DNA of 64,000 nt, from positions 5,941-69,940 of the forward strand of contig JBPOJQ010000010.1 of the NCBI GenBank assembly GCA_052033375.1, written 5' to 3'. Source of the stretch: Candidatus Magasanikiibacteriota bacterium. Lineage in GTDB: Bacteria; Patescibacteriota; Patescibacteriia; Magasanikbacterales; UBA922. Shown here one piece after another: positions 9,321-59,741 of this stretch (position 1 is its first letter; each line of letters starts with the position of its first letter). Made by a program: the position numbers and the translations under genes. The notes below the pieces were generated by a model, which worked only from the letters and a program-made list of their open reading frames with translations, was not told where the DNA came from and did no database searches.

Positions 9321-9325
9321 TTTTT

Positions 9326-10552: not shown

Positions 10553-10593
10553 CTGCTTCACAAATTTCCTCAATCTTGCTAGGATACTAGTCT

Positions 10594-11409: not shown

Positions 11410-11467
11410 CGTGTATCGTTATCTAACTGTGTATTTTTCATGATACCTGGTTTATGATATGTACTGT

Positions 11468-11845: not shown

Positions 11846-11862
11846 ATATTTGATTTGTTAGT

Positions 11863-12594: not shown

Positions 12595-12692
12595 AATGCA
12601 GTAGGATAGCTTTAAACTCAAAATAATAACTTACATCTAAAAAATTAAGTATTAGATAGGGTTTTAAATTTTGAACTGTAATTTTTTTATAT

Positions 12693-14009: not shown

Positions 14010-14014
14010 TATAT

Positions 14015-15259: not shown

Positions 15260-15295
15260 TATCTATATCTAGATTTGGAGGTAATTTTTGGTTGT

Positions 15296-16627: not shown

Positions 16628-16647
16628 ATTCCCGCTTTCGCGGGAAT
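16628..16647. repeat. 20-bp GC hairpin ATTCCCGCTTTCGCGGGAAT, right copy (inverted) flanking GIY-YIG gene
   Basis: Reverse complement ATTCCCGCGAAAGCGGGAAT differs from left copy only by a compensatory C>T / G>A pair. Confidence 0.7.
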
Positions 16648-22712: not shown

Positions 22713-22819
22713 CAGTCGAAAGTCGTAAAGTCTGTAAAGTTATAAAGTAAAATACAAATAACTTTAGGATTTTATAGATGAATAACTTTCGACTTTATGG
22801 ACTTTTTGACTTTCTGACT
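22713..22819. repeat. imperfect long inverted repeat: AAAGTC/TAAAGT array upstream vs GACTTT array in first 13 codons of next gene
   Basis: cagtcgaaagtcgtaaagtctgtaaagttataaagt ... aactttcgactttatggactttttgactttctgacta. Confidence 0.4.
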
Positions 22820-23257
22820 AAGATTATGCAGCAGTTTATAGTCCCACAATTTATTGAAGTCGAAGATAAAATTTTGGGTCCGATCACGAGTCGGCAGTTT
22901 ATTATTTTATTGATTACCGGCCTGATTGTATTTGGTGCATATCGCTTTGGTGATTTTGCATTATTTATTTTTTGTCTCATATTTTTTGGTATTGGTGGAC
23001 TCGTAATTGCGTTTGTAAAAGTAAATGGACAAGCATTTCATTATTTTTTTCTGAATATTGTACAGACGCTCCGCCGACCGTCACGAAGGGTGTGGCATAA
23101 GACATTATCCAGAAAAGAACTTGAGATGCTCAGAAAGTATGTACCAGAGGCAGTTGAGGTAAAGGAACAAGCAAAACCAGTGAAACGTGAGCGAATTCAG
23201 GATTTGTCATTGTTGGTAAATACTGGTGGGTTTTATAGACCTGAGGATGATCGGTAG
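22778..23257 (+). CDS. PrgI/VirB3-like small two-TM membrane protein
   Basis: KILGPITSRQFIILLITGLIVFGAY resembles GP(L/I)T.RQ motif region of Gram-positive PrgI-family proteins; lies just upstream of VirB4. Confidence 0.45.
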   Translation: MNNFRLYGLFDFLTKIMQQFIVPQFIEVEDKILGPITSRQFIILLITGLIVFGAYRFGDFALFIFCLIFFGIGGLVIAFVKVNGQAFHYFFLNIVQTLRRPSRRVWHKTLSRKELEMLRKYVPEAVEVKEQAKPVKRERIQDLSLLVNTGGFYRPEDDR

Positions 23258-24031: not shown

Positions 24032-25894
24032 ATGCCTTTTCAACCTGTCTCATTTGAATCACAAAATAAACGACTGAGTTCGTCCGCAGACAAAAAGAAA
24101 ACGGATGAAACATTGGTCACGCTTGAGGAAGAGCGTGTCTATCGTGAGGGGACTGTATCCCTTCGCGACTTGATTGCGCCTTCAGCTTTTAATGTTGAGT
24201 CAAATTTTTTGCAATTGGGCTCTATATTTTTGCGTACCATTTTTGTGGTGAGTTATCCACGCTATATTTCAATTGGCTGGTCTAGTCCTATTCTCAATCT
24301 CAATTTGACCATGGATGTGGGCATGTTTTTCTATCCAGTCGAAGCTCCTATTATTCTCAAACAATTGAAGAAAAAAGTGGGAGCACTCCAGGCACAGATT
24401 AGTCAGGATACTGAAAAAGGTGCGCCACGTGATCCTATTCGTGAAACTGCGCTTCGGGATGTCGAACAATTGAGAGATGACTTGACTCAAGGAATTGAAC
24501 ATTTTTTCCAATTTGCATTTTATGTAACTTTGTACGCGTCTACCAAAGAAGAATTGGACCGTGTAACTGAGGATATACACAATATTTTTGGATCCAAATT
24601 GATTCACAGTAAACATGTGTTATACCAGTCAGAACAAGGGTTTAATTCTACCGCGCCACTTGGGATTGATGAATTGGTGATTTCATTTAATATGAATTCA
24701 AGTCCCATTGCTGCGTCTTTTCCATTTATTTCGACTGAACTCACTAGTGATAATGGAATTCTATACGGTATCAATAAACACAATAATAGTTTGATTTTGT
24801 TCGATCGTTTTTCTTTGCAGAATGCTAACATGGTGGTATTTGCGACGTCTGGAGCCGGCAAGTCTTATGCTGTCAAACTTGAAATTCTTCGAAGTCTCAT
24901 GATGGGGATTGATGTCATTGTGATTGACCCTGAAATGGAATATGTACACCTTTCAGAGGCGGTTGGTGGAACCTATATCAATATTTCACTTGCGTCTGAG
25001 AGTAAAGTAAATCCATTCGATCTTCCACGTCCTGTGGGGCAACAAATTTCGACTGAAGATGTGATACGAAGCGCAGTTATCACTATGAAAGGACTTCTTC
25101 GTATTATGTTTGGTACACTTACTGCTTCTGAAGATTCGATTCTTGATCGCGCAGTGCTCGAAGCGTATGCAAAAAAAGATATTACCACTTCTTCTGATCT
25201 CGCTACTATTGAAGCCCCGATTATGCAGGATTTGCTTGACGTTCTCGAGGGAATGGAGGGCGCCGATACGCTTGCACTTAAACTTCGAAAATATACTGAT
25301 GGAACGTTTGCTGGACTTTTCAATGCTCCGACCAATGTAAATATGAACAATCAATTGGTGGTCTTTAGTGTGCGTGATTTGGAAGATGAACTACGTCCGA
25401 TGGCTATTTATACGCTTATTAATTATATATGGAATATTGTTCGATCAGAGCGGAAGAAACGCTTGTTGGTCATTGATGAAGCATGGTGGCTCATGCTTCA
25501 TGAAGATAGTGCAAAATTCATGTATGCGTTGGTAAAAAGATGCCGCAAATATTATTTAGGAGTCACGACAATCACACAGGATGTGAATGATTTCTTGCGC
25601 TCTCCATACGGACAGGCAATTGTAAATAATTCAGCATTACAATTATTGCTGAGACAAGCTCCTTCTGCTGTGGATATGATTCAAAAAACTTTCATGTTGA
25701 CCGAGGGTGAAAAATATTTATTGCTCGATAGTGGTGTTGGGCAGGGAATATTTTTTGCCGGAAATCGTCATGCTGCAATTCAGATTGTTGCTTCGTATAC
25801 CGAAGATCAGTTGGTGACTTCGAATCCACAGCAATTATTGGAAATAGAACGCGCAAAGAAAGAATTTCAGAATGAATTTAAGAAAGAATCTTAG
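24032..25894 (+). CDS. VirB4/ConE (TraE) conjugative-transfer ATPase, C-terminal segment
   Basis: LRDLIAPSAFNVESNFLQLG...; Walker A VVFATSGAGKSYAV; Walker B LLVIDEAWWL (DEAW typical of VirB4/TraC family). Confidence 0.85.
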   Translation: MPFQPVSFESQNKRLSSSADKKKTDETLVTLEEERVYREGTVSLRDLIAPSAFNVESNFLQLGSIFLRTIFVVSYPRYISIGWSSPILNLNLTMDVGMFFYPVEAPIILKQLKKKVGALQAQISQDTEKGAPRDPIRETALRDVEQLRDDLTQGIEHFFQFAFYVTLYASTKEELDRVTEDIHNIFGSKLIHSKHVLYQSEQGFNSTAPLGIDELVISFNMNSSPIAASFPFISTELTSDNGILYGINKHNNSLILFDRFSLQNANMVVFATSGAGKSYAVKLEILRSLMMGIDVIVIDPEMEYVHLSEAVGGTYINISLASESKVNPFDLPRPVGQQISTEDVIRSAVITMKGLLRIMFGTLTASEDSILDRAVLEAYAKKDITTSSDLATIEAPIMQDLLDVLEGMEGADTLALKLRKYTDGTFAGLFNAPTNVNMNNQLVVFSVRDLEDELRPMAIYTLINYIWNIVRSERKKRLLVIDEAWWLMLHEDSAKFMYALVKRCRKYYLGVTTITQDVNDFLRSPYGQAIVNNSALQLLLRQAPSAVDMIQKTFMLTEGEKYLLLDSGVGQGIFFAGNRHAAIQIVASYTEDQLVTSNPQQLLEIERAKKEFQNEFKKES

Positions 25895-42491: not shown

Positions 42492-42928
42492 ATATTGAAT
42501 ATCGATTGAAATTCTCGGATTTTGTAGAACTGGGCATGTTTTTGTGTTTGAATCTTAGTGGGTCTGATTGATGTCTGTGCCAGATTGTGATTGTCGTAAG
42601 AATAATAAACGTACTGTGTAGAAATAGAGTATAGGGGCCGAATATATAAGCTGTAGCTGAATCTGCCATTCAATTGACTTCCTTGGGTTTCTTTTCTTAG
42701 CCCGAGACATGTTTGTGCGTACATCCTACTCAGTTAAGCGGGGAGGCTGTGCAATCGATGATTGAGAGCTTGTATGGGTGGGCACATTATACTAAATCTC
42801 TAGTCGCGTTAATCTAAAGGTTTTATTATATCAGCGTTTTACTCTCAGAAACACTTAACGTTTTATATTTGCAATTTTCCTTAAAAAACGCTATAGTACC
42901 CTCTACTTTAAGCATTAGCTATTCGCGT

Positions 42929-43570
42929 ATGTCTGATTTGAATAAAGATCCTCAAAATACAGATAACTTAAACGATGAGGTGTATGAGCGAGGTCTATTG
43001 AGTAAGGTCGCTTTATTTTTTCTAGAAATTATTAAAATTTCTATTCTTGCTGCTGTAACTATTATTTCAGTTCGGTATTTTTTGTTTAAGCCTTTCTATG
43101 TAAAAGGTCAATCCATGGAACCCACATTTCACGAACGTGATTATTTGATCATTGATGAGATTTCATATCGTTTCCGAGTTCCGGAACGAGGGGAGATTGT
43201 AGTTTTCAAGTCCCCAATTAATACTGATTATTATTTGAAACGTATTATCGCACTTCCTGGTGAGCGTGTTAAAGTCGAGAATAATACGGTGATTATTTAT
43301 AATGAAGAAAATCCTCGAGGATGGGTCTTGTCAGAAGTATACCTCGAAGAAGAAACTCCTGGGTCTATATCGCTTACTTTGGCTGAAGACGAATATTTTG
43401 TATTGGGGGATAATCGAGACCAGAGTTTTGATTCGCGTCGGTTTGGGGCTATTAAAAAAGATGTTATTGTGGGTCGAGTATGGTTTCGTGGGTGGCCGTT
43501 TAGTCGGTTGTCGACGTTTTCTCTTCCCGAGTATATCCCTGATTCACGAATCCCAGCGCAAAATTCGTAA
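42929..43570 (+). CDS. lepB: signal peptidase I
   Basis: N-terminal TM; catalytic Ser box GQSMEPT; VVFKSP; YLKRIIALPGE (Lys box); GDNRDQSFDSR. Confidence 0.88.
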   Translation: MSDLNKDPQNTDNLNDEVYERGLLSKVALFFLEIIKISILAAVTIISVRYFLFKPFYVKGQSMEPTFHERDYLIIDEISYRFRVPERGEIVVFKSPINTDYYLKRIIALPGERVKVENNTVIIYNEENPRGWVLSEVYLEEETPGSISLTLAEDEYFVLGDNRDQSFDSRRFGAIKKDVIVGRVWFRGWPFSRLSTFSLPEYIPDSRIPAQNS

Positions 43571-45851: not shown

Positions 45852-48146
45852 ATGCTCCCGAAGACTCGACGAACAATTAATACAAAGTTAAAAGTTACCG
45901 TATGGACCTTTCGTGCGGTTGCTTTTGTTTTTTTATTTATTTTTTCTTTCCACCTGTTCGGCGATGTTTTGTACGCAGCACCTTCGAGTGTGGCAGAAGA
46001 CCAATTTGGTATTGAGGGTGTTGGTGAAAATATTAGCATTCCGTCAGATCCGAATTCTGATATTAGAGTAATTATTGTTCGGATTATCAATGTTGTGTTG
46101 ACTTTTCTTGGTATCGTGGCGGTGGGTTTTGTACTCTATGCTGGTTATCTCTGGATGACCTCTTCTGGGAACGAGGAACAAGTCGCTCAGGCTAAAAAAA
46201 TGCTTGTTAATGGAGTTATTGGTCTTACGATTATACTTTCAGCTTTTGGGGTGACGAGTTATATCCTACGGTCTCTTATTAATTCGATTAATGGTTCAAG
46301 TGGTGGTGTGACGACTGGTACGCGTCCTGCGGTCGCTACGTATACATTTTCTGGTTCTCTTGGAAGCGTGATTAAGGATCATTATCCTCGTCGTGATCAG
46401 CGTGAGGTTCCGAGAAATACTAGTATTGTGGTCACTTTTGGAGTTCCTGTTGCTCCGTCGTCACTGATTGAAAATATTAATCGAACCTGCTGGAGTGATG
46501 ATTGGTCTCAACCAACTACCATATGTAAAACTCCTTCAGGAGGAGTTGTCGATACCAATACTCCGCTTGATCAAATTGTTAATCCGTATTATGGGGACTG
46601 TGTTGATACCAATAATGATGGAACTGTTTCAGTACAATCTGAATGTGATCGACTTATTACTGATCGAGTAGTCTTTGATGAACGTTCATTATTTACTTCC
46701 GCTGTCTCTGAGGGGGGCTCTATAGGAAAATCAGCGGCTGCGCTTACTACGTATGACTTACAGAGAAATGCTTTCACTTTTGTAATTAAGCCATATGAAT
46801 ACTTGGGTTCTTCAAGCGAAGATATTGAGTACCGTGTTCGATTGACCCCAGAAATTATGCGAGCTGATAATGGACAGAGTGTGTTTGAAAATCAATTTTC
46901 AGATGGGTATGTGTGGGATTTTACTACAGGTAATACGCTCGATTTGGCGCCCCCACATGTGTTGAATGTCTATCCTGAGACCGGTTCGATTATTCCAAAA
47001 AATTCAATTATTCAGATTACATTTGACGAGCCGATTGACCCTACTACTGTTGAGAGCATAGTAAATGAGGGTTCGAATAATACATTTGTTTCGACTTTGC
47101 TTAATCAGAAAATAGGCGAGACTCTATATGCTGTGTCTGGATCATGGAGACTGACGAATGGGTATACCACGCTTGAATTTACACCAAGCGCTGATTGTGG
47201 AGTCAATAGTTGTGGGGAGAAAATGTTTTGTCTCGAAGTGGATTGTTCGGGTGCCACCTGTACTAATTCATATGAGGCTCTCCTTCGGACCGCAGAATGG
47301 ACGAGAAATAGTCAATCACCTTTTGAATCCGTACCTTTCTCTGGTATTTATGATTTAGCGTTTAATGGACTCGATAATACAGCAGATAATGAGACGAGTA
47401 ATCATCTTACTAAGCCTGATCTCAATACTGCAATTTTGATTCAACCTGCTGAAAAAAAACCTGATAATTATTGGTGGTCTTTTCAGGTTTCGAATACTAT
47501 CGATCGTTCGGCACCGTATATCGAAGAGATTATTCCAGGTGTTGATGCAGAAGATATTTCTGGTAGCATTCCTGTTTCAATACGTTTTAGCAAACGTATG
47601 ATGTCTGCGACGTTGCAGGGTGTGGATATACGCAGTGGAATTTCTCTGTTGGAGCATCCCACGAATATTTGTTCTGACGCTGCTATTGATACTGAATCTC
47701 CAAATGAATGTTCCGATGACGCACGGTTGGATAATTTATGGTTCAGAGTGGGTAGTGTAATAGTTGGTGATAAGACTCGAGCTATTTTGGACCATCGTGA
47801 ATTTGGACCCAATGGTCTGGATTTGTATTACATTCCAAGTGTTCCTAGCACCGTCAAAAGTGTGACGCAGAATTGTGTATATCCAGGAATTGGCCCATGG
47901 ACAGAGACACCAGCTCCCTCAGGAGAGGCATCTGTATGTGAAGTGACATACGATAAAAATGGATACGTGCAATCGAGTGTGGGCTGTGTCGGGGTTACTC
48001 ATAATGACGCTCTCGAAGATACTGGGTGTGTGTATACACTTGGTTCGGGGTATACTGCTGGAAGTCCAAGCGATCCTATTTTTCGAGCGAGTGACATAGA
48101 GTCTTGTGTGAATCGTCTCTATACTGAGTCTCAGAATTCATATTAA
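45852..48146 (+). CDS. secreted/membrane-anchored protein with N-terminal signal peptide + two-helix pilin-like module and Cys-containing ectodomain
   Basis: N-terminal ~140 aa ~60% identical to N-terminus of the 3433-aa protein (IRVIIVRIINVVLTFLGIVAVGFVLYAGYLWMTS..AKKMLVNGVIGLTIILSAFG). Confidence 0.55.
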   Translation: MLPKTRRTINTKLKVTVWTFRAVAFVFLFIFSFHLFGDVLYAAPSSVAEDQFGIEGVGENISIPSDPNSDIRVIIVRIINVVLTFLGIVAVGFVLYAGYLWMTSSGNEEQVAQAKKMLVNGVIGLTIILSAFGVTSYILRSLINSINGSSGGVTTGTRPAVATYTFSGSLGSVIKDHYPRRDQREVPRNTSIVVTFGVPVAPSSLIENINRTCWSDDWSQPTTICKTPSGGVVDTNTPLDQIVNPYYGDCVDTNNDGTVSVQSECDRLITDRVVFDERSLFTSAVSEGGSIGKSAAALTTYDLQRNAFTFVIKPYEYLGSSSEDIEYRVRLTPEIMRADNGQSVFENQFSDGYVWDFTTGNTLDLAPPHVLNVYPETGSIIPKNSIIQITFDEPIDPTTVESIVNEGSNNTFVSTLLNQKIGETLYAVSGSWRLTNGYTTLEFTPSADCGVNSCGEKMFCLEVDCSGATCTNSYEALLRTAEWTRNSQSPFESVPFSGIYDLAFNGLDNTADNETSNHLTKPDLNTAILIQPAEKKPDNYWWSFQVSNTIDRSAPYIEEIIPGVDAEDISGSIPVSIRFSKRMMSATLQGVDIRSGISLLEHPTNICSDAAIDTESPNECSDDARLDNLWFRVGSVIVGDKTRAILDHREFGPNGLDLYYIPSVPSTVKSVTQNCVYPGIGPWTETPAPSGEASVCEVTYDKNGYVQSSVGCVGVTHNDALEDTGCVYTLGSGYTAGSPSDPIFRASDIESCVNRLYTESQNSY

Positions 48147-48151
48147 TCCTT

Positions 48152-51100
48152 ATGAAACGCCTGTTTTCTTTTGTAAATATAGTATCAATTGGGGTCGTCC
48201 TTTTTGCAGTGTATTTTGGCTTTGCGGGAACTTTTTTCGCGCAAGAAGCAGTAGCTGATACTTTTGGACTCACTAGCGTGGGAGAACAAATTTCTGTGTC
48301 GAGTCAAACTCCTGATTTGAGGGTTACTGTGGTGCGTATTATTAATATTTTTTTGGGTTTTTTGGGAATTGTAGCAGTTTGTATCGTGTTGTATGGCGGA
48401 TATTTGTACATGACGTCGAGAGGGGATGATGAAAAAATCGGTACAGCAAAAAAAATCTTGGTCAATGGCTCAATTGGGCTTTTGATTGTACTTTCTGCAT
48501 TTGGAATAACTTCATTTGTATTATCTCGGTTACAAGATTCAATTTCTGGTACCTCTGGGCCGGGTGGTGGGGGCGGGGGTGGAGGTGAATTACTAGGATC
48601 GTGTGACGATGTTAATTCTCCGTATTATGCGGCCTACGCGACGACTCGTTGTGCACAATTTTGTGATAATCATCCGGTGCAGTGTGCATCCTCTCAGTAT
48701 TTTATTGTAAAAAGTATTACTCCTCACACACCTGATGCTGCTGACTCAACTGGTATGAATAATTCTGTGATTCGCGTGTTATTTAGTAAACAGCCAGCAG
48801 GTGCAGTGAGCGATATCTTTAAAATATTTAAAAAAGAAAGCGAACAAGAAGTTGATATTACGAGTCAATTTAATTTTTCATTTGAGGAGGGTGGTCTTCT
48901 CGTTGCTGCGACGTATACACAAGGACCTGCCTGTGCGTCGGTAAATGGTGTTTCAGTGTATTGTCTTTCGAACGGTGAATATCGGATTGAAGTGAATCAA
49001 AATTTGCGTGACATTGAGGATCGAGCATTGACCCTTGAGGTTGCAAATCAGTCATTTCCTCGAATTGCGACATTTCGTACTGGTTTATCGGGCGACACAC
49101 CTATTATTGATAGTGAATTTTCTGCTCTTGCACCAATTTCTATTGGAGGTTACCACGGTGATGATACTTTTCGAGCAGTCCGCGGAGAGACATATACGAT
49201 TGAAGGCACTCTCGGAGATACTCATGGAAACGCGTACGTGGATATGAAAGTTTATCGTGAAGGTTCATCTGGTCCGAGCGTTGTAAGATATGTTGATGGT
49301 CCACGTGTTCGTGCTACGGGTGGCTCTAGTCAGTCATTTGATTTTGAATACACACTTCGAATTGATTCGAATAAATTTGCCCCTGCAGTGGTGTATGTTG
49401 TGGAAATTATTGCGCATGATATTGATGGAAATACTGCCACCGATATAGTCAAATTTATAGTGGTACCTGCAAGTTGTACGAATGGTCTTCTTGATGCGGG
49501 CGAAACTGACGTCGATCAAGGAGCTGTGTGTGGTGGCGCACAGGGTAATAGTTGTCAATCTCAGAGTGATTGCGCTTATTGGCTCCAATGTCTTGATAAT
49601 GCTAATGCTGCATGTACTGGCTCAAATTGTTCATGTAAAGAAGTTCCTTATATTTCGAGTGTTGAATATATGAATGGTGCGCCAGGTAACTGGATTACTA
49701 TATTAGGTAAAAATTTTGGATCATCTGTTGGGGAAGTTACATTTAATTATGATTTTGATAGCAATGGTACTATAGATTCTCGTGTGCCTGTAGTGCTTGC
49801 TCAATGCCAGGAAGGGACTGTGTGGAATGATTCGTGGATCATTGTTGAAGTTCCTCAGCAGGCGCAATTTGCTTCTGAAGATGAGATCGTCAATCCTTCT
49901 ATTTCAGTTGTTTTACCCTCAGGACTTTCAGATTCTACGGATAATGATTTTGGTCCTCAACTTGGTACCTTTGTATATAATACAGTACAGCGTCCAAATC
50001 TATGTTCGGTTACTGTTGATGGTGATCATTCTGTACCTCTTGAGGATGGTACGAGTGTCACATTACATGCAGGTGATACCGCTGCACCACAGGGAACACC
50101 TGTGATTCTCGAAGGTAAGGGCTTCGGTATGTCTGAAGGTGAAGTTATTTTTCATACTGCTGCCGCAAATGTTGAGTCATGGTCAGGCGATGTTATTAAT
50201 TCTGCTGTACCATTTTTGGGTGAAGGACAGACTTCGGTGTATATTACATCTGATCTTGGTGAAAGAAGTAATCCTGTTTCTTTTATTGTTTCATCACCTG
50301 CTAATCTACGCCCACCAACTATTACCTCGATTGATCCAACGTCTGTGACCAAAGGGAGTTACATCACAATTACGGGTAATCGTTTTGGAGTGAGTGGTAA
50401 TGTGTACTTCACGCAGATTGAGGGTGGAAATTGTCCTGGGGCTGGGTGTATCCTCGGAGGGACACTTCCTCAGTCGTGTGGGAACACATGGAGCGTTAAT
50501 CAATTGATTACCAAGATCCCTGATGATCTTGAGTTTGCACTCGGTACATATTTTGTTGTTGTTGTTCGAGAAGATGGTGTAAAAACTGCAGGGTCAGAAA
50601 GTATCACTGTTGTCGCAGGTCCACCTTCGCCCAGTATTTGTCGTATTGATCCGCATCGTGGGTTTGCACCTATTTTTGATGAATCTGATGCAATCACTAT
50701 ATATGGAGAGAATTTTATCACTGACTCAGCAGTGAAGTTTTGGTACCCTCTCGGACAGTCGCAAGATCCGGATAGCTGGCTTTCAACTCAGTTGGGGGCA
50801 GGTATTGATGGTGGATCAATTTTAGATCTGACTACTCAGGAAATTAAGACGACTATTCCATATGATCCTGATTCTGGGCTTTCTATGTCGAGCGGACCTG
50901 TCAAAATTAAAAATGCCGCTGGATTATTCAGTAATGCAGTGAACTATACGGTATTGGATTGTCGTGATCCTGGTAGTCCACAAATTTCTGGATTCCAGTG
51001 TTGTAGTGAGGGTCCTGAGGCGGGTAGATGGAAACATGGAAATTATGCGTGTGAAAATTCGAGTCGTGAAGCCGGGTATGTGTGGAGATTTTCAAGTGGT

Positions 51101-54100
51101 AAAATGCCACAAAAGTTTTTTGTAAATGAACTTTGTTCGGACAGTGGATCACCCTCACCTAGTCCTTCAACACTCTGGAGCGATGGGTATAACGTATGTG
51201 TGAATGCTCAGTTGACTATTAATTTTAATTTACCAGTGAATCGGGCGACTGTTTTGGATCAATCAGGTAATATCACAAACATTACGATTTCTCAATGTGG
51301 AGGTACTGACACTGCAATTGATTGCTCAAACGATGAGCAGGTTGTTACTTCTGAATTTTCGGGTGAAGAGATGGGGGAGAATGCATTAGTTTTCAGAAAA
51401 AAGGATGGACCAATACTTTCCCCGCAGACGTGGTATCGCGTGGGTCTTTCGTCTGCTGTTTCTTCCCTTAGATTTGAAAATGAACTTGGAGATTTGGTTG
51501 AAAAAACAGAAAATTTGGAGCCGACACGTGAATGTCAAATCAATGGGGCAACCTATGCATATTGTTTTGATTTTAGAACTGGCCCTGCTAATTTTCAATG
51601 TTCACTTGTAGGCGCTGGAATTCATCCTTCAGATTACACCACAACACTTCTTGGAGTGGTACAGGATTCGCGAGGCAATAAAATTTATGATATTAATCGA
51701 GTATTTAATATATCTGCTGTACGTCCGCTAACATATCGTGTGTATGGTAAAAGCAATTTAGCATGTACGACGATTAATGTGGATGATAAGCCATGGGCAT
51801 GGGGTCCAATTGATGATGCGCCTGCGACTGGAAAACAAATGGTTGGACAGGTGCAGTCAAAAGGATATGCGGTAGCCTGGGAGCATTTTCCCGCAGGCTC
51901 TCCTATCAGTGCGACCATTATTGAAAATAGTGAAGAAATTAAGGCAGTGAGCATGCTTAGGATTACTCTTGGAGATCCGTACGCGAAGAATGTCTGGCCA
52001 TCGTGTAATGAGGCGTGTGTAAATGCTGAGATTGGTATTGAGTTCAATCAGATTATGGATGTTCGCACTTTTGATGCTTCGAAGTTGGCATTACATGAAT
52101 GTAGTACCGAAATGTGCGACTCATTAATCGAACCTTCTGTTCCATTGGTAATCACATCTGATTTGCAAAGTGAAACCATTCTTCGTGCATATCCAGCTAC
52201 GCTTTTGAAGAAAAATACATGGTATATTGTTGACTTGGAGGAGGGGGTGCGTGCTATAGGAGGTGTGGCCGAGGGCGAAGGTACTAAACTGGGCAGTAGT
52301 GTGCAGCCAAAACAGTGGAAATTCAGAACCAAAGATTCAGCACAATCATGTCTTGCTGATGCTGTTAAAATTTCGCCTGATCCTTTTTATTCAACTTATA
52401 TCGGAGAAGCGCAGTTATATCGAGCACTTCCTGTCGGTTCCCCAGATTCTTGTAGCGCGTCTGGCCAGCAGCTTAATCCGTGGAGTTATGGTTGGAATTG
52501 GAGCGTCGAAGATTCTGGAGTTGCGAAAGTAACTAACTTTAGTTTCAAAGGTTCTACTAAATCAGCGTGTACTATTGGCTGTACTCCTGTTGGTAGTGAT
52601 ATTTCCCGTCAACTGACGAGTTATCCTGTGTGTGGTAATGGTACTAAAGAGTCGGGCGAAGATTGTGATATTGCTCGTCCGGGTGAAATTCCTGGGACAA
52701 GTTGTTCATTTTCTTGTCTTCGTCCAGGTAGTAGCGCAACGTGTGGTAATGGTATTGTAGAGAATTCTTCAGGCGAAGAATGTGACTATAACGCTCCGGG
52801 TGCGATTCAAGGACTCTGTACGAATACATGTACCAATGCAGGATCTGCTTCACAGCCTGATATCGCTGGGAATGTGAATGCGCCTGTGTGTGGTGGGGGC
52901 GGCATCGGCTACGGCGAGGATTGTGATATTGATGATCCAGCGACCAAACATGGGTGTTCTAATACCTGTGTGAATATTGGTACACCAATTTCTCAGGCAT
53001 GGTGTGATGGGTGGGTGAGTTATTCTCAAAATCCAGGCAGTGTTAGTGCTGTAATGCGTGTACAGTATGCAGAAGTAAGTATGTCTGAATTCACAGCGGC
53101 ATGTGGTTCTGCTACTAGTGTTTGTGGTAATGGAATTATTGAGCAAGGAGAAGAGTGTGAGAGTACGGATTCTTACTGTTCAGCTCGTTGTCTGATTCAA
53201 AATGCATGTAATACACCGTATCAACAGTGCGCGCGTGGTGAAGAAGGTTGTCTCTCGGATTGCACATTTGCAGGTTCGTCGATTATGTACTCTACTCCTT
53301 CGGTTTGTGGAGATGGTATTGTCGGGATTGGAGAATTTTCCTCAGAAGATGATGATATTCGCTCATGTGAATTACCTCTAGCGACTGTTGGTAATACTCT
53401 TGGTGGAAATCCTGTACAGGTGGTCACGGCAGTGGGTAATCCAAGTAATGTTCCAACTACAGGGGTAGTTACTGATATGGAGACTAGGGTACAGGCACAG
53501 GCAAGTGTCGGACGCGATGAAGCTACGGGGAATCAGATTTCGATTGCTTCGGTCGCTGGCGAAGGTGAATATCATCTTCAGTGCGGATACGATGAATATG
53601 CGACCAAGCAAAGCGATGGTTCGTATAATAACTGTCCGTCTAATTCTGATAATACTTTCGGCGTTGCTTCTAATTCGTGCTGTATTGAACGACCGGCAAG
53701 AGTCGAAGAATATCCCATTTCGAATGCGGGTATCGGTGCCGGGAGTACGCCGGTATGCCGTAATACATATATTAGTGTTAGTTTTGATCAGAATATTCCT
53801 GCGGAATATATTCAAAATAACATTCAATTAGTCCAAGGTTTTGCACAGGGTTATTCGTGTTCTGAGCATGGTGGAAAAGATGTGACACTTGCGTTGAGTA
53901 GCGCACTTGATACAAACAGTACACATACTCAGAATTTTTGGGTCCGTGTCTGGAATTCAATTAAAACATTCTTTGCTCAATTGATACAAATTCGTGCACT
54001 CGCAGCACCTCAACCAAACGCATCAGTTCCGGGTGATCTGGTGCTGTGTTCAGGTGTGACTCCGTTTACTGTGAGACCAAGTTATGAAACGAATGCTGAC

Positions 54101-57100
54101 GGTGTGATTACCAAGACACTTGTGTCTATTTATCCAAATCAGGCGCTAGAATCAAATCAATATGTGCTTGTCCTACTTAATGGTGGTGAGGGTGGAATCA
54201 GAAATAATGTAGGAGTAAGTATCAAGTCACCTCTTGGTTCTGAGTTATCTGATTATTGGGTATTTAAGACTGGTGCACAAATTTGTAAGATACAGGAGGT
54301 CGTTGTTGAGCCTGCTTCAGCATTGTACACGGTGCCTAATAGTTCAAAACAATTTGTTGCACAGGCTATTTCTACTGATGCAGTGCGAAATCAAAAAATT
54401 GTGCCTATTCCTTTGCAGTATGCGTGGGAGTGGAATTGGGGACCACAAGAGGATGCTATTTTTGATATTCCTGTCACTGCAAATGCTGAAAATTCAATTA
54501 CTTCAAAAGGCGTTCGTGGACATACTGATGGTATTGTGAGTGCACGTGTAACAGTCGATGCTTCTCAGACGAATAATCAATCAGGTAAAACTTTTTCAAC
54601 TATATACAGTCTTGATGCTTTATTCTGTCAGAGACCATGGCCTCTCACTGCGAATCCGGTAAATGCAGATGATGTGGGGATAGATACGCTTTTTGTTGAT
54701 TTGACTTATAACTTTTCAATGTATTATTGTGCTGACAGTGGAAGTCCGTTGTCTTCTTTTGATGATCTTCCGTACTTTAATCAGATTGAAGTTATCACTG
54801 ATCCTACACAGCTCGGAGTCATTGCTCCGGGGGATTTACCAGATGCCTTAAGGCGTTATCTTTTGTTCGCTGATAAGACCGAAGATGCGATTGGGGTGCA
54901 GATTTTTGCAAATCCAGTCAAACCTGACGGCACTAGGCAAACATTGAACGAGTGGTATATCGGTAAATTTGGTGATCTTTCTGGTGTAAAGCAGGCAAGT
55001 ATCGCGGGGTATGACGCACTTTTGAATGATTTTAATCTGTATGTGAATGCGTATAATTTGTACGATCAATCAGTATATAACAACGTATATTTGTTTAGTA
55101 TTGATACTAATGCGAGCCCTGAAACGAGACAGGTATTTGATCAGTTGATCGCATCTCTACGCTTTAATATCAATCTCACTAATCACAATCGGTGTCTGCG
55201 TGCTGGAGCTTCTGGGGTGAGAGAAAGTCCGAATGAACTGGCTATTCCTTTGATTTCTTGTACCACTGATTTTGATTGCCGAGATAGTGCTGGCGCACCA
55301 AAGACTGGAACGAATGGTACCTGTTCGAATGCACTCACTAAGTTTGGACGTGATGTGAATCGTTTACAGCAGATGTCTCTAATTCAGAAAAAAACAGAAG
55401 CACAATTATCAAATACTGAATTGAATCTGTCGAGTGGCACGTATATCCCAGGATACACAAATTCAAAGTGGTCCTCATGGGGTAAATTAGGAGGAATTAT
55501 TGGCGGTGCTGCAACCGATCCGGTGAATCAATGGGTAGGGTGTAGCCCTCATGATCCTTCGACATGTTGGAGTGCCGACCTCACCACGTTTAGATGTCCT
55601 ACATTTTCTCAAGTGTATGAGTATGAGTATGATTCAGTGACTAAGAATTATGAGTACTATGTTCCATTTGAGTTTATCAATTCCTCTGATGATGATTTTG
55701 CGTCTCAATATGTTGATCTCCGGCATGTCAATTTTGATCGATGGGCACAGTGTAGGGCACCCGGCTCTATTGTGAGTCCATTTGGTGGGCAATGTGGGGA
55801 TGGGAACGTAAATATTGGGGAAGCGTGCGATCCACCAGGGAGAACTACCCTGTATGATAATGCATGTCCGGTCGGGTCATATGCAACAGCTACTTGCAAT
55901 TCTTCTTGTCAGTATACATACGGCGCGTGTAGCGCGAGTGCTGCGGTGTGCGGGAATGGACGAATAGATGCTGCAGAAGCATGCGACGCAGGATCAGAGA
56001 ACGGTACGTATGGAAGTCGATGTACTACACAGTGCCAAGTTGCGACTCAAAGTAACGGCGGACAGTTTTGTGGAAATGGTATTTTGGATACCAATGCTCA
56101 GGGAAATTATCTAGAATTTTGTGAAGAAGTAAATGGTGCTTGTATGCACATTAGTGAGAGCGGACAGATATTGAAGCCTGAAGTACATATTTTGCTTGAT
56201 AATTCTAGTTCTATGTCAGGCACGAAATGGGCAAGTGCTGTAGCAGGTATTCAGAATATTTATGCTGAATTATCTGATAGTATCAATTTCAGTCTGAGCA
56301 TATTTTCTCCGGTTGATAAACTTAATTCTCCTACCACCTGTTCACAGGTGATACCGCTTTCTTCGCTGCCTGCTACACCCAATGCAAACACGCCGACCAA
56401 AAGTGCACTTGCAGAGATATATGCACTGAGAACATCATTGTTTGGTTCTAATGATAGTGTTGCAAAAAAACTCGTAATTATTACTGATGGAGATCCAACC
56501 AATTTTGATTATCGAAATCAATTTGGACAAATAACAGCAAGTTGTCAGGGAAATACTCCTTCAAATGTGGTTAGTGAGATTCAGAAATTTAATCAAGCAA
56601 ATATTCAGACATTTGTCGTTGGGTTTGGTAATCTGAGTCAGAGTCTTAAAAATAATCTCAATTTATTTGCTCAAGCTGGTGGAACTAGTAACCCTGACTC
56701 ACCATCGAGTGATCTGTTTTTCACCGCTGAAAATTCATCCCAGCTGGTGAGCGCTTTTTCTGGTATTTTGGGTTGTTTTGAATACAGTCAATATAAACAA
56801 AACTCATGTTCCTGGAATTGTCAGGAATATGGAGATTATTGTGGTGATGGAATTGTGCAACAGGGGAGCGGTGAAGAGTGTGAGCCCTCTATCAGTGGAG
56901 TGAATACCTGTAGTCCGTATTGTAAATTTGTCGTTACACCAGCTGCAGTGTGTGGAAATTCTCAAGTGGAATCAGGTGAACAGTGTGATGATGGTAATAT
57001 ATCTGATCAGGATGGATGTTCGTCATTATGTTCGTTTGAATCAGTGTCGGCTGCGTGCGGGAACGGCATTGTCGAGACGGTGAACGGCATACAAGAGCAA

Positions 57101-58453
57101 TGTGATTTGGGTTCTCAAAATGGATTATCATGCAATCCGGCATATAATACCCCGTGTACATACTGCAGTAATACATGCACCAATATTACGGTAGATGCTG
57201 TTGCGTATTGTGGTAATGGGAGTATTGATCAGATTAACCCAACTACTCGTGAAGCATGTGATTATGCAGATTCGACCATTGTTGGTGGAACGGGCGCATT
57301 AATTTGTTCTGATAAAGGCACGTATTCGTGTACTAATAATTGTCTGCAGTTGGTGAATAATTGTGTGACGTGTGGAATAAGTACTACGACATTGACTACG
57401 CCTAAAATTTCTATTTTGAATCCGTTGACGCAAGCTGGTAATTCGCCGTACACTCCGACGATTGGGTATGTCGACATATTGCGAGGGAGCACTTCCACTA
57501 ATTTGCAGTGGCTTGGGTATCGGAAAATAAATTATCGGTCAGAAGATCCAAATTCATACATCGATCCATTTGATCCATACACATTACTCATTGATGCAGC
57601 TTATCAGCCGGTGACTAATCAGGGTCTCCAAACTAATGGTTCGTGTAATGGTGAATATGTGCTACTCTTCAATAAGAGACATATTAGTGAAGAAAAAACA
57701 GGCAATACAAATGGACTTACCCATGCACAGATTGTGAATCAGGGTTTTGGTGATTTGTTTGCATATCCAGTCAGTGGTGAGGGTGGTCAAGTAGTGAATG
57801 AAGTTATCCTATCTCCTGCTGTGCCACAGGATCAGGTACGTATTGTGGTGAGATGGAAAAAGAAATCATCAGGCGCGTTATTCACAGGTAATCTGTACCA
57901 GGACAATGCTACGCCAAGTGTGATTAGTTATGTGACGAATGATCGGACGAAGTTGTGTGGAGATATGGATATCACTCCACAGAGTTCGAATTATTATCTT
58001 CCTGTCGGATGCCTTCCTGTAACTCCATCCACGTGGATTCATCAGATTTTGAATCCGAGTGTTACTACCCAGGCAACTCAGGCATTTACTCTATCTGCTC
58101 TTAATCGACAGTCAGATAGGACCATCGGGTTCTATGTTTCTTCGTTATCTGGTCCGATTAATCAGTTTAAAGATTATGAACTATGGGTCGATGTATACGA
58201 GTATCATGCAGGCCAGGTCCCACTCTATTCGGTGTACAAACCAACACATACTTTTTCTTTTGGTGATGCTATCCAGAGTACTAATCCACTCGCACGATAT
58301 TGGCATGTGTTCAATCTTACCATCAGTGGCTCAAATGCGTTGAAAAAGTTTACTGTGCAAACCGTGGCTGGTGCAAATTCTGGAGCTATTGTTACGAGTG
58401 AGTGTGAAGTTCGAAAGAATATGCCAAACACTACACAATGTCCGACTCAATAG
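48152..58453 (+). CDS. giant (3433 aa) surface protein: N-terminal pilin-like membrane module, poly-Gly linker, IPT/TIG-like repeats, three clusters of Myxococcus-type Cys-rich repeats, vWA domain
   Basis: Uninterrupted ORF. IPT-like ILGKNFG/ITGNRFG/IYGENF (49.6-50.9 kb). CGNG/CGDG...GE(E)CD(DGN) repeats at 52631-53350, 55790-56110, 56820-57380. vWA MIDAS LLDNSSSMSG and ITDGDPT at 56170-56780. Confidence 0.7.
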   Translation: MKRLFSFVNIVSIGVVLFAVYFGFAGTFFAQEAVADTFGLTSVGEQISVSSQTPDLRVTVVRIINIFLGFLGIVAVCIVLYGGYLYMTSRGDDEKIGTAKKILVNGSIGLLIVLSAFGITSFVLSRLQDSISGTSGPGGGGGGGGELLGSCDDVNSPYYAAYATTRCAQFCDNHPVQCASSQYFIVKSITPHTPDAADSTGMNNSVIRVLFSKQPAGAVSDIFKIFKKESEQEVDITSQFNFSFEEGGLLVAATYTQGPACASVNGVSVYCLSNGEYRIEVNQNLRDIEDRALTLEVANQSFPRIATFRTGLSGDTPIIDSEFSALAPISIGGYHGDDTFRAVRGETYTIEGTLGDTHGNAYVDMKVYREGSSGPSVVRYVDGPRVRATGGSSQSFDFEYTLRIDSNKFAPAVVYVVEIIAHDIDGNTATDIVKFIVVPASCTNGLLDAGETDVDQGAVCGGAQGNSCQSQSDCAYWLQCLDNANAACTGSNCSCKEVPYISSVEYMNGAPGNWITILGKNFGSSVGEVTFNYDFDSNGTIDSRVPVVLAQCQEGTVWNDSWIIVEVPQQAQFASEDEIVNPSISVVLPSGLSDSTDNDFGPQLGTFVYNTVQRPNLCSVTVDGDHSVPLEDGTSVTLHAGDTAAPQGTPVILEGKGFGMSEGEVIFHTAAANVESWSGDVINSAVPFLGEGQTSVYITSDLGERSNPVSFIVSSPANLRPPTITSIDPTSVTKGSYITITGNRFGVSGNVYFTQIEGGNCPGAGCILGGTLPQSCGNTWSVNQLITKIPDDLEFALGTYFVVVVREDGVKTAGSESITVVAGPPSPSICRIDPHRGFAPIFDESDAITIYGENFITDSAVKFWYPLGQSQDPDSWLSTQLGAGIDGGSILDLTTQEIKTTIPYDPDSGLSMSSGPVKIKNAAGLFSNAVNYTVLDCRDPGSPQISGFQCCSEGPEAGRWKHGNYACENSSREAGYVWRFSSGKMPQKFFVNELCSDSGSPSPSPSTLWSDGYNVCVNAQLTINFNLPVNRATVLDQSGNITNITISQCGGTDTAIDCSNDEQVVTSEFSGEEMGENALVFRKKDGPILSPQTWYRVGLSSAVSSLRFENELGDLVEKTENLEPTRECQINGATYAYCFDFRTGPANFQCSLVGAGIHPSDYTTTLLGVVQDSRGNKIYDINRVFNISAVRPLTYRVYGKSNLACTTINVDDKPWAWGPIDDAPATGKQMVGQVQSKGYAVAWEHFPAGSPISATIIENSEEIKAVSMLRITLGDPYAKNVWPSCNEACVNAEIGIEFNQIMDVRTFDASKLALHECSTEMCDSLIEPSVPLVITSDLQSETILRAYPATLLKKNTWYIVDLEEGVRAIGGVAEGEGTKLGSSVQPKQWKFRTKDSAQSCLADAVKISPDPFYSTYIGEAQLYRALPVGSPDSCSASGQQLNPWSYGWNWSVEDSGVAKVTNFSFKGSTKSACTIGCTPVGSDISRQLTSYPVCGNGTKESGEDCDIARPGEIPGTSCSFSCLRPGSSATCGNGIVENSSGEECDYNAPGAIQGLCTNTCTNAGSASQPDIAGNVNAPVCGGGGIGYGEDCDIDDPATKHGCSNTCVNIGTPISQAWCDGWVSYSQNPGSVSAVMRVQYAEVSMSEFTAACGSATSVCGNGIIEQGEECESTDSYCSARCLIQNACNTPYQQCARGEEGCLSDCTFAGSSIMYSTPSVCGDGIVGIGEFSSEDDDIRSCELPLATVGNTLGGNPVQVVTAVGNPSNVPTTGVVTDMETRVQAQASVGRDEATGNQISIASVAGEGEYHLQCGYDEYATKQSDGSYNNCPSNSDNTFGVASNSCCIERPARVEEYPISNAGIGAGSTPVCRNTYISVSFDQNIPAEYIQNNIQLVQGFAQGYSCSEHGGKDVTLALSSALDTNSTHTQNFWVRVWNSIKTFFAQLIQIRALAAPQPNASVPGDLVLCSGVTPFTVRPSYETNADGVITKTLVSIYPNQALESNQYVLVLLNGGEGGIRNNVGVSIKSPLGSELSDYWVFKTGAQICKIQEVVVEPASALYTVPNSSKQFVAQAISTDAVRNQKIVPIPLQYAWEWNWGPQEDAIFDIPVTANAENSITSKGVRGHTDGIVSARVTVDASQTNNQSGKTFSTIYSLDALFCQRPWPLTANPVNADDVGIDTLFVDLTYNFSMYYCADSGSPLSSFDDLPYFNQIEVITDPTQLGVIAPGDLPDALRRYLLFADKTEDAIGVQIFANPVKPDGTRQTLNEWYIGKFGDLSGVKQASIAGYDALLNDFNLYVNAYNLYDQSVYNNVYLFSIDTNASPETRQVFDQLIASLRFNINLTNHNRCLRAGASGVRESPNELAIPLISCTTDFDCRDSAGAPKTGTNGTCSNALTKFGRDVNRLQQMSLIQKKTEAQLSNTELNLSSGTYIPGYTNSKWSSWGKLGGIIGGAATDPVNQWVGCSPHDPSTCWSADLTTFRCPTFSQVYEYEYDSVTKNYEYYVPFEFINSSDDDFASQYVDLRHVNFDRWAQCRAPGSIVSPFGGQCGDGNVNIGEACDPPGRTTLYDNACPVGSYATATCNSSCQYTYGACSASAAVCGNGRIDAAEACDAGSENGTYGSRCTTQCQVATQSNGGQFCGNGILDTNAQGNYLEFCEEVNGACMHISESGQILKPEVHILLDNSSSMSGTKWASAVAGIQNIYAELSDSINFSLSIFSPVDKLNSPTTCSQVIPLSSLPATPNANTPTKSALAEIYALRTSLFGSNDSVAKKLVIITDGDPTNFDYRNQFGQITASCQGNTPSNVVSEIQKFNQANIQTFVVGFGNLSQSLKNNLNLFAQAGGTSNPDSPSSDLFFTAENSSQLVSAFSGILGCFEYSQYKQNSCSWNCQEYGDYCGDGIVQQGSGEECEPSISGVNTCSPYCKFVVTPAAVCGNSQVESGEQCDDGNISDQDGCSSLCSFESVSAACGNGIVETVNGIQEQCDLGSQNGLSCNPAYNTPCTYCSNTCTNITVDAVAYCGNGSIDQINPTTREACDYADSTIVGGTGALICSDKGTYSCTNNCLQLVNNCVTCGISTTTLTTPKISILNPLTQAGNSPYTPTIGYVDILRGSTSTNLQWLGYRKINYRSEDPNSYIDPFDPYTLLIDAAYQPVTNQGLQTNGSCNGEYVLLFNKRHISEEKTGNTNGLTHAQIVNQGFGDLFAYPVSGEGGQVVNEVILSPAVPQDQVRIVVRWKKKSSGALFTGNLYQDNATPSVISYVTNDRTKLCGDMDITPQSSNYYLPVGCLPVTPSTWIHQILNPSVTTQATQAFTLSALNRQSDRTIGFYVSSLSGPINQFKDYELWVDVYEYHAGQVPLYSVYKPTHTFSFGDAIQSTNPLARYWHVFNLTISGSNALKKFTVQTVAGANSGAIVTSECEVRKNMPNTTQCPTQ

Positions 58454-58496: not shown

Positions 58497-58850
58497 ATGA
58501 AACAGAAGTTTTTTGTGATCGTTGGTGTCTGTGTTCTTTTGGGAATTCTTGGGTTTGGCGTGTGGTGGTTTATCTCCCATCGACAGAATCCGATTGTGCC
58601 AGAGGTGTTTGAGATTCCTGAATGGTATTATGTTGATAAAGACGGTGATGGAATTACTGATACACAAGAGACCGAACTGGGTACCAGTGTAATTGAATCA
58701 GATACTGACGGGGATACTATTTCTGATAAGCTTGAAATAGAAGTATATAAAACTGACCCCCAAAATCCTGATACCGATCAGGATGGTTATTGGGATGGAC
58801 TTGAGTTAATTCAAGGACATGACCCACTTGAAAAAGCATCTATTAATTAA
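58497..58850 (+). CDS. membrane-anchored protein with bacterial thrombospondin-type-3 Ca-binding repeats (paralog 1)
   Basis: N-terminal TM; DKDGDGITDTQE, DTDGDTISDKLE, DTDQDGYWDGLE. Confidence 0.55.
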   Translation: MKQKFFVIVGVCVLLGILGFGVWWFISHRQNPIVPEVFEIPEWYYVDKDGDGITDTQETELGTSVIESDTDGDTISDKLEIEVYKTDPQNPDTDQDGYWDGLELIQGHDPLEKASIN

Positions 58851-58859
58851 TTTTATTGT

Positions 58860-59741
58860 ATGTTTGACGATGTGCAACCTCCAAAACCAGGCGCTACGCC
58901 ACCGAATCTTCCTCTTGGCGAGCCCGAAGATATTTTTGAGCGTAATGATGTCGTTGAATCCAATGACAGTGCGCCTATATCAGAGCCGTCTCCCGATTCT
59001 ACTTCCCCCGTCCTCACAAACACCGCTCTTGATATGGGTGTTTTGAAGCCAAAAAACTCTCTACAAACTACCAGTACTCCTGTCCAATCACCAGTTTTTT
59101 CTTCAGAGTCGAGTCAATTGAATCCTCCAGCACCTCTTCAGAATTACACAATTCAGGCTCCACCAGCTCCTTTTTTAGCCGAAGAACGAGGAATGGCGCC
59201 TACTCCAGCTGGTGTTCCTCAGGAAGCGCCGTTTAGTGGAAGAAAAATATTAATGATTATTGCTGTGTTAGTAATAGTGGTTTTGATTGGTTTTGGAAGT
59301 TTGTGGATTTATACTTCATTTATCAAAAAAAATATTGATCAAAATAATTTTATTTCTCCTGTAATCACTCCTACATCCTCATCATCTGATTTTTCCGATA
59401 CACCAGTGGAGGAATCTTTACCCGTGAATTCCACCTCTACTAATATTGAGGATAGCATTCTTTTTGGTGAGCCAGTAGATACTGATAATGATGGAATTTT
59501 AGATATACATGAAGTAGAGTACGGCACGGATACACTTAATTGGGATACTGATCAAGACGCACTTTCTGATGGTGATGAGGTGTCAGTGTGGAATACAGAT
59601 CCTTTGACTTTTGATACTGATGGCGATGGGTATTCAGATGGAGTTGAAGTGAAAAATGGATACAAACCTACTGGACCAGGTAAATTATTTGATCCACCGA
59701 CCCAGACAAGTACTCCTAAAGCGACGACCACTTCAATGTAA
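58860..59741 (+). CDS. TSP3-repeat membrane protein (paralog 2), Pro/Ser-rich N-terminus, central TM
   Basis: TM ILMIIAVLVIVVLIGFGSLWIY; DTDNDGILDIHE, DTDQDALSDGDE, DTDGDGYSDGVE. Confidence 0.55.
   Translation: MFDDVQPPKPGATPPNLPLGEPEDIFERNDVVESNDSAPISEPSPDSTSPVLTNTALDMGVLKPKNSLQTTSTPVQSPVFSSESSQLNPPAPLQNYTIQAPPAPFLAEERGMAPTPAGVPQEAPFSGRKILMIIAVLVIVVLIGFGSLWIYTSFIKKNIDQNNFISPVITPTSSSSDFSDTPVEESLPVNSTSTNIEDSILFGEPVDTDNDGILDIHEVEYGTDTLNWDTDQDALSDGDEVSVWNTDPLTFDTDGDGYSDGVEVKNGYKPTGPGKLFDPPTQTSTPKATTTSM

Follow-up and report, generated by a model that had tools for sequence, protein, structure and literature searches.

The subject of this analysis is a pair of adjacent genes, here called A and B, in a 64,000-nucleotide (nt) stretch of a Candidatus Magasanikiibacteriota genome (contig JBPOJQ010000010.1, positions 5,941 to 69,940 of the forward strand). 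This whole stretch is referred to as the window, and coordinates are counted from its first letter. Judged by sequence profiles, both proteins begin with a pilin of the VirB2/TrbC superfamily, and both continue into large ectodomains. They are proposed to be modular VirB2-type pilins in which a pilin carrier bears an adhesin passenger and would be incorporated into a pilus. A rough probability of 0.5 is assigned to this reading. The two genes are:

45852-48146, + strand: A, putative modular VirB2-like pilin of 764 amino acids (aa) with pilin module, linker and tandem immunoglobulin (Ig)-like ectodomain
48152-58453, + strand: B, putative giant modular VirB2-like pilin of 3433 aa

The gap between A and B is 5 nt. 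A promoter and terminator scan of the region from 42 to 60 kb was uninformative, with promoter-like sites rarer than in shuffled sequences. By BLASTP, residues 26-142 of A and 15-127 of B are 55% identical (E 6e-30), and the identity rises to 64% over the 77-position hairpin core. The sequence-only reading, made from the letters without database searches, had put this similarity at about 60% over about 85 residues, which agrees with these values. Beyond the module, no significant similarity was found between the two ectodomains by BLASTP (next best E 0.077), and a third copy of the module was found in the window neither by phmmer nor by a search of all six frames with a hidden Markov model (HMM) of the pilin. 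Hydropathy analysis of the whole proteins showed exactly three hydrophobic segments in each, all of them N-terminal (13-44, 69-104 and 116-143 in A; 1-31, 56-89 and 101-128 in B), and no further transmembrane (TM) segments. The N-terminal parts are as follows:

45852-45977, + strand: A, signal peptide (aa 1-42) on the hydrophobic segment 13-44, with predicted signal peptidase I cleavage after Ala42
45978-46058, + strand: A, mature N-terminal tail (aa 43-69), predicted to be extracellular and disordered, ending in a conserved D-x-R
46059-46292, + strand: A, pilin hairpin (aa 70-147) of helix 1, loop SSGNEE and helix 2, from profiles, AlphaFold2 and conservation
46293-46343, + strand: A, flexible Gly/Ser/Thr linker (aa 148-164), at which the pilin profile stops
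48152-48241, + strand: B, signal peptide (aa 1-30) on the hydrophobic segment 1-31, with predicted cleavage between FFA and QEA, aligned with the family's A-x-A site before Gln
48314-48544, + strand: B, pilin hairpin (aa 55-131), from PF18895 (31.5 bits, fragment), the free-pilin HMM (E 1e-36) and hydropathy
48545-48595, + strand: B, linker (aa 132-148) with a run of eight glycines, read from the sequence

An AlphaFold2 model of residues 1-163 of A contains a helix at 8-38, a disordered stretch at 39-70, and two helices at 71-103 and 108-148 joined by a 4-residue loop. The predicted local distance difference test (pLDDT) is 82-92 in the hairpin and below 50 at 34-66 and at 149-156, that is, in the tail and in the linker. 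Hydropathy and structure prediction thus bear out the layout that had been read from the letters, a signal peptide followed by a helix, a polar loop and a second helix.

The assignment of the module to a pilin family is based on several profiles. The Pfam family PF18895 (T4SS_pilin, the VirB2-like pilins of Patescibacteria) has a gathering score of 26.6 bits, which A exceeds both as a whole protein (32.0 bits) and as an N-terminal fragment (35.5 bits). B exceeds it as an N-terminal fragment (31.5 bits) and stays just under it as a whole protein (25.3 bits). A search with the module only returned 79 free-standing Patescibacteria pilins of 111-188 aa that are 38-57% identical to it. This word-indexed search missed even an identical protein, and the all-small length spread of its results is an artefact that was not used as evidence; the family size was taken from an exhaustive HMMER search instead. 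An HMM built from the 79 free pilins covers residues 31-155 of A (E 1e-39) and 19-141 of B (E 1e-36), which is the full pilin length, and therefore A and B each appear to begin with a whole pilin and not with a fragment. Free pilins stop about 10-15 residues past helix 2, and the linkers of A and B start exactly there.

The wider relationship was checked with PF04956 (TrbC/VirB2, cut-off 27.9 bits). All 81 of the closest relatives of the module match PF18895, and 51 of them also match PF04956 at E<=0.01; a B-type relative (P0324) reaches 39.4 bits and is over the cut-off. The modules of the window themselves fall short of it, with E 0.3 and 11.7 bits for B and no match for A. A relationship to the TrbC/VirB2 superfamily is therefore supported by these profiles, but direct membership in PF04956 is not. 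The 80-position model NF045849, built on the Mycoplasma protein Mbov_0395, scores 37.6 bits for A (E 1e-9) and 33.7 bits for B (E 2e-8), both under its cut-off of 40. A Pfam scan found no N_methyl domain (PF07963) in either protein. A C-terminal LPXTG motif with a hydrophobic tail is absent as well, as the last hydrophobic segment ends at residue 143 of A and at 128 of B; the proteins end in TESQNSY and TTQCPTQ, respectively. The VirB2/TrbC-like identity suggested by the sequence-only reading was thus confirmed through PF18895 and through the relatives that match PF04956.

Since a hydrophobic hairpin could also serve as a simple anchor, the constraint on the module was compared with that on the rest of the protein, and the signal peptide was used as an internal control for a segment that is merely hydrophobic. 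Within the A family, the hairpin has a mean pairwise identity of 58%; the ectodomain reaches 41%, the signal peptide 29% and the linker 25%. The positions invariant in free pilins (G67, G78, M82, T83, G86, K95, G104, L105 and I107) are retained by the A and B modules of 70 genomes, and so are the M-T-x-G-G-N-E-E loop with the basic residues that follow it and the D-x-R of the extracellular tail. The G, GL and DxR motifs (HMM positions 37, 45-46 and 50-52) are conserved in the free pilins and in both modules, and the information content per position of the A and B modules correlates with that of the free pilins (r 0.67-0.68). Y76, N100 and I114 are common to the A and B modules and mark them as a sub-family.

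The modules of a pair are also more similar to each other within a genome (65.9% identity) than between genomes (54.9%). For 33 A modules, the B module of the same genome is the best match among the 70, and the own B is closer than the B of the nearest neighbour by 4.0 percentage points (45 higher, 18 lower; Wilcoxon p 2e-5). In a clustering of the sequences, A modules were not separated from B modules. A DNA-level repeat search found no shared tract between the two modules in the window, so the covariation signal lies at the protein level there; recent gene conversion between the modules of this genome was rejected on the same grounds.

These results bear on a static membrane anchor, in which the hairpin has been co-opted as a two-helix anchor and A and B are cell-body adhesins of a wall-bearing monoderm that never enter a pilus. 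Such an anchor would suit a gene pair that lies within housekeeping synteny and never adjoins T4SS (type IV secretion system) genes or pilin arrays. The hairpin provides an N-out/C-out topology fit for display, the passengers are long enough to span the envelope, and a pilus has not been seen in this group. However, a generic anchor should keep hydrophobicity only, and this expectation contrasts with the gap between hairpin and signal peptide in sequence identity, with the retention of the invariant loop motif, glycine positions and DxR tail, and with the covariation of paired modules. The anchor is therefore considered possible but less likely than the modular pilin: no part of A is better conserved than the hairpin, which retains the free-pilin invariants and co-varies within pairs, and this suggests that it is more than an anchor.

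The architecture is widespread. With full-length A as query, at least 279 homologues were retrieved. Of the 120 listed, nearly all have 640-807 aa and combine PF18895 with Big_5, and most of the matches listed are from Candidatus Magasanikbacteria, one of them being identical to A of the window. In a locus scan of one genome per GTDB species, a relative of A was encoded in at least 576 species-level genomes. The gene following A is a giant open reading frame (ORF) with a second pilin module in all 70 loci that have downstream DNA. Complete B-type neighbours have 2,256-3,441 aa, and many exceed 3,450 aa and run off the locus. Relatives of A from independent assemblies are 28-70% identical and keep both the length and the position of the linker. 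Upstream of A, the 80 related loci carry lepB in 71, hisS in 76 and yqeY in 45 cases. Records of metagenome-assembled genomes with this Patescibacteria locus are often titled 'uncultured Gammaproteobacteria bacterium', in one case 'Candidatus Udaeobacter sp.', labels that look like placeholders or errors.

An exhaustive profile search of 1.84 billion representative sequences found 71,809 family members at E<=1e-3. Among the best 149 new representatives of these, 68 have at most 200 aa, 58 have 201-699 aa and 23 have at least 700 aa. Those of intermediate length mostly contain several pilin hairpins per polypeptide, and the long ones carry one N-terminal module each and reach 4,344 aa. Seven of the 23 long representatives were scanned with Pfam and showed A-type or B-type architecture; the named ones come from Patescibacteria.

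Such proteins could in principle arise by mis-assembly, by a frameshift or by a gene call that joins a small pilin gene to the surface-protein gene behind it, and the public collection does hold many multi-pilin ORFs, some of which may be fused gene calls. Both reading frames are uninterrupted in the window, though, and the same architecture recurs in no fewer than 279 proteins and 576 genomes. An artefact is practically excluded, because the architecture is conserved across independent assemblies.

The sequence-only reading had also claimed that the module is joined to large extracellular, adhesin-like domains, which was corroborated by domain scans of both proteins and a fold search of A. 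The passengers contain the following features:

46344-48143, + strand: A, ectodomain (aa 165-764), a compact series of Ig-like beta-sandwiches with 16 Cys and pLDDT mostly above 90
49643-50530, + strand: B, TIG/IPT Ig-like domains (aa ~498-590 and 722-793), PF01833 with 39.5 bits for the whole protein and segment scans
53735-53935, + strand: B, Big_5 Ig-like domain (aa 1862-1928), PF13205 with 42.9 bits
56183-56749, + strand: B, von Willebrand factor A (VWA) domain (aa 2678-2866), PF00092 with 35.1-39.2 bits
56948-57040, + strand: B, Cys-rich acidic repeat (DUF4215 / myxo_disulf_rpt, aa 2933-2963), from domain scans

The AlphaFold2 model of whole A has a mean pLDDT of 87.4 and a predicted template modelling score (pTM) of 0.78, and Big_5 was detected at residues 366-414 with 46.4 bits. 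A Foldseek search of its ectodomain against the PDB returned Ig-like repeats only (BIg domains of LdtMt2 at 9e-6, titin and protocadherins); an enzyme or a toxin was rejected for this reason. In B, the VWA domain carries motifs of the metal ion-dependent adhesion site (MIDAS) type, with DxSxS at 2683 and TDG at 2779, and the whole protein contains 127 Cys. Judged by sequence, the composition of both passengers is typical of extracellular adhesins with a putative binding function. Directly 3' of B, two small proteins (58497-58850 and 58860-59741) each combine Ca-binding repeats of the bacterial thrombospondin type 3 kind with a single TM segment; they are placed outside the conserved unit because homologues occur in only 3 of the 80 related loci.

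Among 117 family members, Ala occupies position -1 in 112, Val or Ala position -3 in 101 and Gln position +1 in 102, which gives (V/A)-x-A before Gln as a family-wide signal peptidase I site. The site of A in the window is less canonical because it has Leu at -3. A signal peptidase gene lies close by:

42869-43570, + strand: signal peptidase I (S26), three genes upstream of A, PF10502 with 144.5 bits

Based on its sequence, this gene is a candidate leader peptidase for A and B, and it is probably the housekeeping lepB. The C-terminus of RP4 TrbC is matured by the S26-like protease TraF, and by likeness to it a dedicated role of the S26 gene for A and B is conceivable.

In another explanation, the pilin module would direct the protein to the T4SS, and the passenger would be freed by VirB4-driven extraction from the membrane or by cleavage of the linker, as in the C-terminal processing of TrbC-type pilins. 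The hairpin would then be a pro-domain or secretion signal. The flexible and poorly conserved linker, the maturation of TrbC by TraF and the conservation of the upstream S26 gene in 71 of 80 loci would be in line with this, as would the dislocation of VirB2 from the membrane by VirB4 (PMC12624023). Yet no conserved cleavage motif was seen in the linker, the first conserved motif (GSGALGxxIKDHYP) lies in the folded ectodomain, and the S26 gene resembles a housekeeping lepB beside hisS. This explanation is regarded as improbable.

Potential partners for co-assembly exist in relatives. In related genomes, arrays of 9-10 free PF18895 pilins are found away from the A-B pair. One array pilin (P0026, 134 aa) is 60% identical to the A hairpin and 68% identical to the B hairpin of the same genome. 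Other array members reach 312-328 aa, so that C-terminal extensions form a continuum.

Beside these, poly-pilins were observed among the representatives, such as P0200 (552 aa, 6 hairpins), P0247 (1775 aa, 16 hairpins) and about 55 others. They comprise 2-16 VirB2-like hairpins per reading frame with a signal peptide on the first only and, as read in P0200, short Gly/Ser/Thr linkers. Such proteins may be genuine polyproteins or concatemers in the membrane, and gene-call fusions may account for some of them. Their existence agrees with an extracellular pilin C-terminus that is free for fusion. In addition, N_methyl type IV-pilin-like proteins are encoded just upstream of VirB2-like arrays in two loci (L006, 2339-4748; L008, 2296-4743), one of them with about 600 aa and a CarboxypepD_reg domain. 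The presence of a modular type IV-like pilin a few genes from a VirB2-like array suggests that the lineage uses modular pilins of two unrelated pilus systems side by side.

The window also encodes components of a T4SS:

16646-20458, + strand: VirB6/TrbL-like polytopic protein of 1270 aa, encoded at the start of the T4SS cluster, with about six TM segments near its N-terminus
22778-23257, + strand: PrgI (VirB3-like), PF12666 with 40.5 bits
23333-24028, + strand: TrsD/TraC-like small protein, like the N-terminal domain of VirB4 (NF041427 at E 4e-6, NF045975 at E 3e-10; orthologues match PF26593)
24032-25894, + strand: VirB4 ATPase of the monoderm CD1110 type, NF045971 with 352.6 bits (cut-off 325) and PF19044
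26565-27296: ComF-like gene (double zinc ribbon and phosphoribosyltransferase), two genes past VirB4

The cluster order is VirB6/TrbL-like, two unknown genes, PrgI, TrsD/TraC-like, VirB4, a small TM protein and the ComF-like gene, which is found at the same position after VirB4 in related genomes. This arrangement with co-located competence genes is as reported for Magasanikiibacteriota. The first protein has no Pfam match; its orthologues at the same position have 1362-1678 aa and match PF19590 (TrbL_3) weakly. It can be described as an extended VirB6, whose large hydrophilic remainder includes an uncharacterised domain of about 900 aa. Directly upstream of the cluster, positions 1-16342 are densely covered with short + strand ORFs, a putative ribosomal-protein operon by ORF pattern only.

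The expectation that a VirB4/VirB6/PrgI-like module lies about 20 kb upstream of the pair was accurate, with VirB4 at 20.0 kb from A in the window. VirB4 is also upstream on the same strand in three other genomes, at 20.9 kb (k141_24438), about 30 kb (JBFOMN010000021.1) and 16.7 kb (CAZMHV010000002.1), whose A proteins are 35-46% identical to A of the window. As functional evidence, this macro-synteny in all four genomes checked is weak. VirB4 is 78-98% identical among its 120 best homologues, compared with 34-70% for A from overlapping genomes; at the level of sequence, this difference in rate fits a conserved machine with fast-evolving exposed parts. At the operon level, the association with the T4SS does not hold, as VirB4, PrgI and VirB6-like genes were found within 10 kb on either side of A-B in none of the 80 related loci. 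Membership of A-B in a T4SS operon was therefore rejected, and the part of the claimed association that stands is the linkage at 17-30 kb.

Taken together with published work, the modular pilin reading can be laid out as a mechanism. VirB2 pilins are held in the membrane, recruited by VirB3 and VirB6 and extracted by VirB4 (PMC12624023). After Sec insertion and cleavage by signal peptidase I, the hairpin of A or B would be left in the cytoplasmic membrane, with both of its ends outside and the short loop (SSGNEE to AKK) inside. Because both ends are outside in this topology, the passenger would be extracellular. For the chromosomal monoderm-type T4SS (PrgI/VirB3, VirB6-like and VirB4), the hairpin would be a pilin like any other and would co-assemble with free pilins encoded elsewhere in the genome. 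These partners are assumed from relatives because the window holds no free-standing pilin. Owing to their bulk, the passengers would be sparse along the pilus or, more likely, at its tip, among the first subunits assembled. The F/pED208 pilus has the loop between the helices on its luminal side and both termini on the outside (PMC5018250), and therefore a C-terminal passenger is topologically compatible with display on a filament. As no VirB5 or PrgB homologue is known in these T4SSs, A and B may supply the adhesin that they lack.

Several points weigh against the modular pilin reading. A search of the six frames of the window with the pilin HMM found no free-standing pilin, and the absence of T4SS genes around A-B in the 80 loci given above speaks against a close link to the machine. 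The linkage at 17-30 kb lies within housekeeping synteny (SMC, S16, lepB, hisS and yqeY) and may be functionally meaningless. The covariation of A and B could reflect old gene conversion of tandem paralogues. A fold search of the hairpin model against the PDB returned only generic helical hairpins (SK channels, CHMP4B and HR1 domains), none at E<=1e-3, and the pilin alignment profile had no matches among PDB sequences. The fold search does not discriminate because a two-helix hairpin is too simple; with this and the empty profile search, the pilin case rests on sequence profiles. No pilus has been observed for the T4SS of Patescibacteria, for which the literature mentions only the 'potential to elaborate conjugative pili', and a passenger of about 3,300 aa on a VirB2-type subunit is unprecedented.

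A more far-reaching version of the modular pilin reading is offered tentatively and with less confidence than the reading itself. In Magasanikbacteria, and perhaps in other Patescibacteria, T4SS pili may be heteropolymers that are nucleated or capped by co-evolving giant modular pilins, which would replace VirB5 and PrgB in host recognition.

The closest known relatives of A and B are the VirB2-like pilins of Patescibacteria (PF18895), with which they share the domain family, the layout of signal peptide, tail and hairpin, the invariant positions, the phylum and the monoderm-type T4SS. These pilins and their arrays are already known and have been treated as small proteins (PMC12102498, PMC10633639, PMC12857230), of about 110-190 aa in arrays of 2-11 genes that are often near virB4 (Quinonero-Coronel et al. 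2025, PMC12102498). A and B differ from them in their length of 764 and 3433 aa, with passengers of 600 and 3,300 aa, and in their organization as a fixed two-gene unit by lepB-hisS-yqeY, away from the arrays. With the canonical TrbC/VirB2/TraA pilins (PF04956; PMC5018250) they have in common the long leader, the two-helix hydrophobic hairpin, the short polar basic loop and the outside termini. These canonical pilins have no large C-terminal domain, unlike A and B, whose host is a monoderm. The Mycoplasma protein Mbov_0395 (NF045849, 'pilin-like conjugal transfer protein') belongs to an integrative and conjugative element (ICE), is linked to a monoderm T4SS and aligns with the hairpins of A and B, but the proteins of its family are small and ICE-borne.

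The same design logic is found in the modular type IV pilins, in which an N-terminal pilin carrier and a short linker are combined with a grafted adhesion module, including a VWA domain with MIDAS. Examples are PilB (VWA module) and PilC (lectin module) of S. sanguinis and CofB of enterotoxigenic Escherichia coli (Raynaud et al. 2021, PMC8179133). The VWA-bearing type IV pilin was modelled at the pilus tip, and Magasanikbacteria are the source of the commonest modular type IV pilin architecture in that survey (PMC8179133); modular type IV pilins with N_methyl and CarboxypepD_reg are also encoded by this lineage. Despite the common logic, the pilin fold and the machinery of the two groups are not homologous. 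Type IV pilins have a class III signal peptide, a prepilin peptidase and a single long alpha-1 helix, whereas A and B have a Sec-type leader, an A-x-A site, a VirB2 hairpin with proposed assembly by VirB4, and passengers that are up to ten times larger. A and B are therefore an analogue of the modular type IV pilins and not a member of them. With the VirB5/TraC tip protein and PrgB-type adhesins, only the proposed role in target contact is common, and there is no relation in sequence or fold. VirB5 is a small helical non-pilin pentamer and PrgB is wall-anchored by LPXTG, while A and B lack an anchor at the C-terminus.

No description of VirB2-type pilins with large passengers was found in the searchable literature, which is incomplete. 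Proteins of the A and B type are already present in public databases as 'Ig-like domain-containing protein', 'IPT/TIG domain-containing protein' or 'pilin'. The sequence-only reading had seen in this pair an undescribed way of displaying attachment proteins. This holds in part: the VirB2-type carrier and the size of the passengers appear to be new, but the combination of carrier and adhesin is established in type IV pili (PMC8179133). A practical consequence is that searches for VirB2 based on size or neighbourhood can miss the largest members of the family or leave them undescribed.

A large part of bacterial diversity belongs to the Patescibacteria, whose cultivated members live attached to host cells. 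In Southlakia epibionticum, the one species tested, the T4SS and the pilins are essential for the attached lifestyle (Wang et al. 2023, PMC10633639), and a survey of 3,035 genomes detected no adhesins (PMC12102498). The A-B pair is a candidate for the missing contact element of the Patescibacteria T4SS. It would also carry the principle of the modular pilin beyond type IV pili to another, unrelated pilus system. If the more far-reaching version of the reading is true, functional modules grafted onto T4SS pilins would be seen here for the first time. The pair suggests that these cells tip or decorate a secretion pilus with giant attachment proteins, which would provide a handle on how episymbionts choose and hold their hosts.

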